From positions 20,584,001-20,648,000 of the forward strand of contig OZ024755.1 of NCBI GenBank assembly GCA_964016885.1: a DNA stretch of 64,000 nt. The letters are read 5' to 3'. The translations under genes and the position numbers were made by a program. Origin of the DNA: Eledone cirrhosa. Lineage: Eukaryota. The notes beneath the pieces are model-generated. The model saw only the letters and a list, made by a program, of their open reading frames with translations. It was not told the origin of the DNA and ran no database searches. Shown here one piece after another: positions 43,321 through 46,211 of this stretch; the first letter of the stretch is position 1; every line of letters starts with the position of its first letter.

Positions 43321-45545
43321 CTACACAAGGCATATGAGGGCTAGGTGGTAGAGTTAATTCAGGTGTAAGATTAAGTATACTTGAATATAAGAAACCCCGT
43401 TCCTATTTCATGTCTGAGAAATGGGCAAAAATCCAAACCCCGTTCATAAGTTAAGGCAATTAATCAACACATTATGTTTAGTTGGTGAATATAAACCAAC
43501 GATTTTTTGGTCACATATTCCTCTGCTTATATTCGAGGATATTCAGTATATCACATAAACAGGTGACAAAGGGATTTGAACTCAGAATATAAAGAGTCAG
43601 AACAACTACACCAACACACTACCTGTCCAACACTCTAATGATTTCACTACTTTACCACCTTAGACTGTTATTTTAATTATTGATCCCAGAAAGATCAAAG
43701 GTAGAGTTGACCATGGCAGGATTTGAATTCAAAACTCAAGGGAACATAACAATTAGAGCAAGGCATTTTATCGAAGGTTCAAATGTTTCTGCTAATTTAC
43801 TACCTTGATATGTGTCTTAGCAAAATAAATACTTAGCAAAATAAATTTTTACTTCGAATGTAGCTGTTGTCTGAGCAAGCAGACATATGTTTCAAGACAA
43901 TCTCATCATATTTCCAGACTTGAGATTTCTTTGGTACAAACAAGGCCACATATTTATAGAAAAGGGAAAAGATGGACTGTGATGCTCTTGTTTTTATCAA
44001 AAGCATCTGTGATGTAAGACACTTAGATAGGTTTAACCGGGAATTGAAATGGGGTCATCAGTTTTACTCATTCCAAATAATAATAATAGCTTCTGATTTA
44101 GGCACAAGGCCAACAATTTTGGGGAAGGGTCAAGTCAATTAAATCAACCTCAGTGCATTACTGGTACTTTATTTAATTGACCCTGTAAAAATGAAAAGCA
44201 AAGCTAACCTCGGTGGGATTTGAACTCAGAATGTAAAGAGATGTAACTCTATGCTGCAAAGCATGTTGTCCAACGCTCTACCGATACTGCCAATACACTG
44301 CCCTTCATTTCTGACTTATGTACAAGATCAACAATTTGTGGGGAAGGGAAAAGTCAATTAAATCTATCCCAGTGCATTACTGGTACTTTGTTTTATCAAC
44401 CCCGAAAGGATGAAAGGTAAAGTATACCTAGGCAGGATTTCAACTTAATTAAATACTGCAAAGCATTTTGTCTGATGCTCTACAGAATAATAATTGTTTC
44501 TACTTTTGGCACAAGGCCAGCAATTACCCAGTGTATTACTGGTACTTTATTTTATCGACCCCGTAAGGATGAAAGGCAAAGTTAACCTCAGCGGGATTTG
44601 AACTCAGAATGGCAAGGGCCGTAACTCTATGCATAGCGTCCGACCCTCTACCGATACTGCCAATCCACGAATAATGATTATTAATAATGGTTTCTAAAAT
44701 AGGTGCATGGCTAAAATAATTTGCAGCATGGGGAGAGGGAGGGAATAGTCCATTATATTGCCCCCCCCCCCCCCCCATACTTCATTTTAACTACTTCAGA
44801 AAGTTGGCCTCGGCGGGATTTAAACTTAGGACACAAACAACTGGAACAAACACCACAAGGCATTTTGTCCAATGTTCTAATTATTATGATAAATGATAAT
44901 TATAATAATTATAATGTTAATAATGATTTCTGATATAGGCACAAGCCCAACAATTTTAGGGGAGGGGAAAGTCGATTAAATTGACCCCAGTGCATTACTG
45001 GTACCTTATTAATCGACCCCATAAGGATGAAAGGCAAAGTTAACCTCGGCGAGATTTGAACTCACAACGTAAAGGGCCGTAACTCTACGCTGAAAAACGT
45101 TGTGCGACGGCCAATCGATATGGCCAATCCACCGCCCTTTAATGATAATAATAATAATAATAATAATAATAATAATGAGGTATTTAAAAATATAAATTCT
45201 TAATATGATTTGATGAGGAATGAATACTGAATATATATATTTATATATTTTTATATATATTTTGTTTGTTTTTTTGTTTTGTTTAATTGATAATGTTAAT
45301 TCTTCGATAACTTTGTTTTTTTTAAAGTTTTTTAGTTGTCAGCAGTGAGGAGATAGAAAATTGATCCAAAATACAGCATAACATGATTCTTCTATACAGT
45401 AAAAGAATCAATGATTTTCAACTCACTATATTACACAGGTACCACACTGTATATATATATATATATATATATATATATATATATATATATATATATATAT
45501 ATATATATATATATGTATATATATATATATATATATATATATATT

Positions 45546-45596
45546 AGTTTCAGAAGATCCCGTTAAGGGTGAAAGCACCGATTCTTTGCTTAAACT
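45546..45596 (+). ncRNA. Degenerate hammerhead ribozyme (U4A core change)
   Basis: AGTTT-CAGAAGA-tCCCgttaaGGGt-GAAA-GCAccgattcttTGC-TT-AAACT; all three stems form; the cassette 45541-45709 lies between (TA)n tracts. Confidence 0.55.
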
Positions 45597-45790
45597 TTAA
45601 TCTGTTATTTTAATAAATATTTGCTCTACGGTTCTTATATATTTGATATATGTTTATCCTTATCGAGCCCTCTTTGGATTTTAGTCTTCAAATTTATTAT
45701 TATTACTATATATATATATATATATATATATATATATATATATAATACAAGGAAAAATGGTTAAGCCTTCATTATGTTTATTGGTTGGTG

Positions 45791-45887
45791 ACACACATTT
45801 CGCTATTGATCAGCTCAAGGTTTGATCTGACCCGACTCTGGAATCAAAAGCTCGTCAGATCTCTGTTGTAGTAATGACAATGTCTGT
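45791..45887 (-). ncRNA. Putative hammerhead ribozyme (possible type III), sense to the SLC4 downstream region
   Basis: Minus strand reads ACAGACAT-T-GTC..GAT-CTGACGA-GCTtTTGAT..ATCAAtAGC-GAAA-TGTGTGT. The core and 9-bp stem II are clear; stems I and III are weaker. Confidence 0.5.
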
Positions 45888-45904
45888 ATATATATATATA
45901 TATA

Positions 45905-45964
45905 TATACCTGATGATATCACCGGATTCATACTGAACCCGGTCATTGAAATGATCATAGTATA
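45905..45964 (+). ncRNA. Type I hammerhead ribozyme, intact core, palindromic stem III
   Basis: TATAC-CTGATGA-tatcACCGGaTTCAtacTGAAcCCGGTcatt-GAAA-tgatca-TA-GTATA; stem III palindrome ATGATCAT; starts at the end of a (TA)n tract. Confidence 0.75.
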
Positions 45965-46211
45965 ATAAACCTTTCAAGGATTTACACCAGTCCAGCCTCC
46001 TGTTATCTTATAATAATTAACTCCGTACTTGCACCACCAACTACACAAACGAAGACGGGTGAGCTGCATTACGTTGAGTACTCTCCATAATATTACATCG
46101 AGATTGACCATACAGAATGACCAATTCTATCCAGTGGTTAACCAACAAACCTAAATATATATATACATATATATAGATATATATCTATATCTATATATGT
46201 GTGTGTGTGTA

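Follow-up and report, generated by a model that had tools for sequence, protein, structure and literature searches.

Hammerhead motifs in the pseudo-LTRs of metazoan Penelope-like elements (PLEs) are described as having a long helix II, a short helix I and a palindromic helix III; most stand singly, some are paired on opposite strands 100–700 bp apart, and they are weakly active, cleaving as dimers only (PMC4209133). PLE copies are further characterized by inverted 5′-truncated partners, by a one-sided tail and, in Neptune and Naiad, by a bias for TA (PMC8557442), octopus Naiads being classed as (TA)n-preferring in the supplement to that study. The one-sided tail has been explained by two internal starts of reverse transcription past the hammerhead, and for the element PAc both strands were cut and extended at AT-rich DNA, with unprocessed RNA as the main template (PMC11167929). 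PLEs tend to land in or beside earlier copies (PMC6765202), and in Octopus vulgaris they have expanded, with 31 recently active PLE families (PMC13282606). Here we analyse a TA microsatellite behind the SLC4 gene of an octopod, in which three short cassettes, A, B and C, stand in series. We read them as short representatives of three repeated families and as likely decayed, 5′-truncated 3′ ends (pseudo-LTR pieces) of TA-targeting PLEs that inserted serially into one microsatellite, and we place the probability of this reading at about 0.8.

Within the 64,000-nt window (the whole stretch of DNA analysed, to which all positions refer), the TA repeat behind SLC4 is divided in the order (TA)n / A(+) / (TA)n / B(−) / (TA)n / C(+) / degenerate TA (Table 1). 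Pfam matches of PF00955 to six exon ORFs, one of which had its best match in O. vulgaris (74%), identified the host gene, which lies on the − strand, as an SLC4 bicarbonate transporter, and alignment of the last exon to the O. vulgaris C terminus placed the stop codon. The cassettes lie 542–1,151 nt and the hammerhead motifs 0.73–1.15 kb past this stop; B is sense to SLC4, and A and C are antisense. The cassettes show no mutual similarity (BLAST, word size 7; best pairwise E 0.58). The initial annotation had proposed three unrelated cassettes separated and flanked by TA tracts beyond the SLC4 stop, with motifs at 45546–45596 (+) in A, at 45905–45964 (+) in C and on the − strand in B; layout, motif places, unrelatedness and position relative to the gene were all borne out, the right-hand tract proving degenerate. 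No contig from four sequencing runs placed on 45745–46870 bridges any TA tract, so the A–B–C order is without independent confirmation from reads.

Table 1 Features of the TA-repeat cluster behind SLC4 and of related motifs in the window.
Feature	Position	Strand	Remark
Left (TA)n tract	45450–45544		
Cassette A	45545–45706	+	Short repeated element end, begins within helix I 5′ arm
Type I hammerhead-like motif A	45546–45596	+	Predicted cut after 45591
(TA)19 spacer	45707–45744		
Cassette B	45745–45886	−	Decayed; its family is high-copy; same orientation as SLC4
Type I hammerhead motif B	45787–45861	−	Predicted cut between 45790 and 45789
(TA)11 spacer	45887–45908		Separates B and C at their 5′ ends
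Type I hammerhead motif C	45905–45964	+	Predicted cut after 45959
Cassette C	45909–46154	+	Member of a very high-copy family
Degenerate (TA)n passing into (TG)n	46155–46210		(TA)n at 46155–46198, 80% matches
Insert D, MITE-like	46211–46328		No hammerhead; terminal inverted repeats 21/25
SLC4 last coding exon	46696–46834	−	Stop TAA at 46698–46696
A′, second A-family insertion	49428–49519		In TA tract of SLC4 intron; 94–98% identical to A (matched over 49424–49519)
Further type I hammerhead-like motif (30651)	within 30590–30741	−	91 nt from TA tract
Type I hammerhead-like motif at 57826	57826	+	Helix III near-palindromic; 153 nt from TA tract

Some neighbouring features are recorded here for completeness. 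The last SLC4 intron (48345 to 46835, −) is apparently of the GC–AG type, with the donor AG|GCAAGT in phase 2. Insert D is 118 nt long and of low copy at 80% identity in sequencing run X2, and its ends resemble those of Tc1/mariner. Elsewhere the window holds an ORF of the Janus/Ocnus family (4529–4906, −) and exons of snurportin-1 (12064–19173, +).

The type I core order CUGANGA ... GAAA ... UH is exact in B and C, whereas A deviates from it (U4A). Motif C has an intact core (CTGATGA/GAAA), a 5-bp helix I whose 5′ arm merges into the TA tract, a helix II with 11 of 14 positions paired and a helix III formed by the palindrome ATGATCAT. In motif B the core (45858–45852) is followed by GAAA at 45801–45798 and helix II retains 9 of 10 pairs, with helices I and III damaged. 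Motif A consists of a core mutated to CAGAAGA (U4 replaced by A at 45552), a helix I of 5 bp, a helix II of 3 bp and a helix III of 4 bp with a large, non-palindromic loop; in A as in C, helix II has U.U at its base. All three helices around the core are thus present in C and A, and those damaged in B are mended by the majority letters of its family, as described below.

Chance occurrence was assessed against 20 local dinucleotide shuffles of the window with a type I descriptor scored by its helices. Three sites (B, C and the motif at 30651) reached a score of at least 12, against none in the 20 shuffles, and four reached at least 10, against a shuffle mean of 0.65. Motif A was missed by this descriptor and is among the 12 sites that a relaxed scan allowing one mismatch returned, so on its own it does not stand above chance. 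Searches with Rfam gave no hammerhead match at the gathering score across the window, and no hammerhead family among the 24 matches at E ≤ 10 within 45500–46200. When the hammerhead fold was imposed on a monomer, it lay above the minimum by about 11 kcal/mol for C, 3 for A and 15 for B; the fold of the C region is better than that of 199 out of 200 shuffled sequences, yet it does not have the hammerhead shape. Under the descriptor used, B and C are predicted type I hammerhead motifs in excess of chance, and A, with its mutated core, is a weaker candidate. An AATAAA hexamer follows the predicted cut by 20 nt in A, 7 nt in B and 4 nt in C, and for all five motifs of the window (cuts at 45592, 45789, 45960, 30602 and 57894) an AATAAA or ATTAAA has its first base between −1 and 20 nt from the cut; this 5/5 compares with a 7% background, the distance window being chosen post hoc and local A-richness being uncorrected. 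At the level of literature listings, the term 'polyadenylation signal' came up in no PLE paper except one review.

Repetition of B and C was examined in four (X1, X2, X21 and X22) of 23 listed sequencing runs, placed on 45745–46870, a stretch that begins past cassette A. These four runs come from two samples and contain 67–85% of the words of the stretch. In the RAD run X21, for which 5,150 of 12.5 million reads were placed (part of them on the simple repeat at 46505–46580), depth was about 690 over B and about 1,350 over C, against 0–1.2 in the unique flank, and X22 was similar; B-family depth persists at 45860. In X2, 5,011 of 16.3 million contigs fall on the stretch and summed contig depth came to 82,000 for B, 654,000 for C and 6 for the flank; as summed contig depth is not equal to copy number, we call the B and C families 'high copy' and no more. 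Other copies of these families likewise meet TA, with loose ends at 45747 (X21, X22), 46015 (X2) and 46048 (X1). Some C-family copies end near 46011–46015 at TA and others begin at 46048 after TA, which is to say downstream of the ribozyme; C-family copies thus differ in both their 5′ and their 3′ ends. Read-end pile-ups at 45982, 46015, 46018, 46118 and 46126 were set aside as likely restriction-library ends: one AATT site holds 46015/46018, and 46126 falls inside another.

Comparison with these family reads brought out the decay of B. The copy differs from the X2 majority at 11 positions, six of them CpG transitions (among the 40 of 162 variant rows listed), and is without about 10 nt at 45829. 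At 45793, 45795 and 45797 the family majority letters, with shares of 79–91% in X2, turn helix III into the palindrome ACGCGCGU with a GUC cut, and the family letter at 45860 (95%) mends helix I; the family also has the canonical G10.1–C11.1 pair. Self-pairing through helix III is worth −13.3 kcal/mol for the family and +1.2 kcal/mol for the B copy. Judged by the read majority, the palindromic helix III of the B family is lost in this copy by CpG decay. At 45857, core position 4, C accounts for 79% of X2 depth and 34–49% in the other three runs, so that the canonical U4 of B may itself be a product of CpG decay, or there may be two B subfamilies; U4C is a known natural hammerhead variant of lower activity (PMC3088659). 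A type III reading of B, in which a 5′ ACAGACAT pairs with ATGTGTGT at 7 of 8 positions, was discarded, as the family reads make that strand a CG palindrome.

A second A-family insertion, A′, lies 3.9 kb from A. It consists of an inverted arm (A positions 23–76) joined with a 1-nt junction overlap to a direct arm (A positions 120–162), and so carries two different 3′ ends 86 nt apart. Twin priming of the LINE type is an alternative reading of this structure. Of the two further hammerhead-like motifs in the window, that at 30651 has an 8-bp helix I and the helix III ATATATAT, its 3′ side being broken by a dispersed SINE-like repeat; both this motif and that at 57826 lie near TA tracts, which suggests that the cluster reflects a genome-wide habit; 8% of non-tract positions lie within 100 nt of a TA tract and 12% within 155 nt, thresholds that were set afterwards. 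A second stack of TA-bounded inserts occupies 57200–57960 in an SLC4 intron and includes a 66-nt, 94% fold-back at 57216–57351, two related 5′ pieces at 57490 and 57681 and the motif at 57826. Across copies, 5′ ends vary from 0 to 150 nt upstream of the hammerhead core, and in no case among the five hammerhead copies of the window does an end coincide with the predicted cut site, these sites lying 29–195 nt from the cassette 3′ ends. The idea that truncation always falls at helix I fits only A and C; B and the copies at 30651 and 57826 begin 27–150 nt upstream.

The proposed mechanism would run as follows. An element-encoded GIY-YIG endonuclease would nick the TA tract, and target-primed reverse transcription would start internally on the element RNA, 30–200 nt beyond the hammerhead, and usually terminate early, leaving a truncated copy; each insertion would keep TA on both flanks and thereby offer a target to the next family. 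The TA bias of insertion is seen in the three cassettes, in A′ and in the read-borne family copies, all of which adjoin TA, and 5′ truncation with an inverted truncated partner is seen in the structure of A′ and in the C copies with differing ends. Both A′ and the copies that span the cut site are consistent with the internal starts and the unprocessed template described for PAc (PMC11167929), and the five window copies that read through the predicted cut site suggest that the RNA used as template had probably not been cleaved, or had been re-ligated. C and the B family have a palindromic helix III that would permit cleavage only as dimers, so that these isolated copies are probably inactive passengers in the 3′ region of SLC4. 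Serial insertion of unrelated hammerhead units into a TA hotspot, as the initial annotation had it, is supported, all three cassettes being repeated and other copies adjoining TA. Single-copy cassettes with no conserved fold were not what we found for B or C, given high-copy reads and motif scores above the shuffles; for A, the repeat status stands with its second copy, while the motif, with its mutated core, does not rise above chance.

Several observations bear on how far the PLE reading can be taken. In its favour, terminal inverted repeats were not found on A, B or C, where 4–6 of 25 terminal bases match, in contrast to insert D, and no tandem units covering the cassettes were found in the window. 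Pfam found no reverse transcriptase or GIY-YIG domain in 150 of the 194 window ORFs that are not of low complexity and measure at least 62 aa, its matches being SLC4, snurportin, Janus/Ocnus and one weak Med5; the 44 left-out ORFs at 44.5–64 kb, read by eye, contain no PLE-like frame. Ends that are truncated would not be expected to contain such an ORF. No open frame runs through any cassette, stops occurring in every frame, and a PAc-like ORF with its start within the ribozyme was excluded on the same ground. Metagenome scans with the C-type and the B-type patterns returned 0 loci each. Against the PLE reading stand the 3′ extensions of 86 nt (A) and about 140 nt (C), compared with reported tails of 30–40 nt, the core and helix III loop of A, and the absence of an Rfam match; target-site duplications are indiscernible inside a TA repeat. 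The cassettes show hammerhead-like folds, repetition, TA-flanked copies, variable 5′ ends, two 3′ ends and, in B, decay; as no reverse transcriptase or endonuclease ORF is linked to them, we infer their PLE membership, which we consider likely.

The closest described motifs are the PLE pseudo-LTR hammerheads (Cervera & De la Pena 2014, PMC4209133), which resemble those described here in type I order, a long helix II and a short helix I, in a palindromic helix III like that of C and the B family, and in their occurrence as scattered singles with opposite-strand neighbours. They are reported with G10.1–C11.1 where A and C have U.U, and differ further in that C is frequent at core position 4 of the B family, that A has its 4-bp, large-looped helix III, and that no ORF is linked to our cassettes. 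With Neptune and Naiad (Craig et al. 2021, PMC8557442) the cassettes have in common the (TA)n target, 5′ truncation, the inverted truncated partner and the one-sided extra tail, although the tails here exceed the 30–40 nt of that study. Naiads are described there as being without canonical hammerheads, and the last ~280 nt of Naiad_Obim in the supplement are, by eye, unlike any of the three, so that by analogy a Neptune-like clade would be the better guess. Of three short cassette motifs looked for in the same supplement, two were absent and one, a 10-mer, occurred three times, the two occurrences displayed looking like chance. In the Naiad_Obim consensus 3′ end given there, GAAA stands ahead of CTGATGA, a permuted arrangement as against the type I order of the cassettes. 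Poseidon PAc of Anolis (Frangieh et al. 2024, PMC11167929) likewise has two insertion-end sites downstream of the hammerhead, an unprocessed template and AT-rich targets; its ORF begins inside the ribozyme, whereas no open frame of that kind survives here.

Alternatively, the cassettes might be non-autonomous elements complete in themselves, either solo non-LTR retrozymes or units of a SINE-like kind, moved in trans by a PLE, and not the broken ends of coding elements. Their size (140–250 nt), the lack of an ORF and the very high copy number would fit, as would the pair and cut site of the B family, and animal non-LTR retrozymes are likewise short, non-coding and of high copy, with type I hammerheads (PMC7229834; bioRxiv 10.64898/2026.07.22.740005) that are argued to derive from pLTRs (bioRxiv 10.64898/2026.07.22.740005). 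Retrozymes, however, are head-to-tail tandems of one unit, whereas here three unrelated solo pieces lie in mixed orientation with no tandem units in the window, none of the five copies is bounded at its cut site, and the 5′ ends vary, one C copy starting only at 46048; moreover, such elements would require the identical targeting machinery. We regard this alternative as improbable. More doubtful still is the view that the motifs arose by chance in AT-rich DNA or that an assembly chimera was joined at the TA tracts. It could draw on the lack of an Rfam match, on the place of A within the relaxed-scan background, on the unbridged TA tracts and on the masking of the B–C spacer in the read comparison, but B and C outscored 20 of 20 shuffles, family reads mend the helices of B, an exact B contig occurs in X1 at a depth of 20.5, near those of SLC4 contigs at 24.6 and 41.8, and the word content of the four runs from two samples likewise speaks against it.

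The transcripts of SLC4 bear on a further alternative. A 3,479-nt contig of run X1 matches 46696–46836 without difference and then departs from the genome at the splice acceptor, a point consistent with the GC–AG intron; X1 shows zero depth over the intron bin and the rest of this contig is of about SLC4 coding-sequence length, all of which points to X1 being RNA. X1 also contains exact contigs for 46217–46596 (depth 41.8) and for B at 45745–45872, and no long exact piece of C is among its contigs listed. SLC4 transcripts therefore probably cross the cluster, with B in sense, as judged from contigs, which give neither strand nor ends. The cluster, or B alone, might then have been retained to regulate SLC4 mRNA, as a 3′ UTR ribozyme just ahead of a poly(A) signal in the manner of the mammalian Clec2 hammerhead (PMC6765202); as there, the predicted cut of B lies on the sense strand of the gene between stop codon and AATAAA. 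The helix III of B would still be able to pair with family RNA (−7.7 kcal/mol). B is, however, a decayed copy of a mobile family and a predicted ribozyme; its self-dimer pairing and one helix I pair are gone, its hammerhead fold is costly, and A and C are antisense. As the CpG decay looks neutral and the exact X1 contig crosses the cut site and continues beyond AATAAA, regulation of SLC4 by B is unlikely, and we hold retention of the cluster for that purpose to be very improbable. Equally faint, on modelled pairing, is the prospect that SLC4 mRNA carries B in its 3′ UTR with an intact substrate strand (GUC site and helix I 3′ arm) before AATAAA, and that intact B-family RNAs would pair with it through helix III and cut it in trans; if true, a retroelement ribozyme family would destabilise host mRNAs that contain decayed copies, across many TA-rich UTRs.

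We return to serial insertion of PLE ends as the preferred reading. Its general interest is lowered by the fact that the pattern is already published for PLE ends and recurs within the window, and greater importance would follow only if host mRNA were cut. Among titles and abstract openings we found no paper describing hammerhead motifs of this kind in octopus. For specialists, the locus offers five motifs in 64 kb that escape Rfam, a poly(A)-type hexamer near the cut in all five, a family in which core position 4 is frequently C, and a host 3′ UTR with likely read-through. Together, the cassettes probably represent three further hammerhead-bearing families, probably of PLEs, in an octopod, and the TA microsatellite behind SLC4 is a tidy example of an insertion collector.
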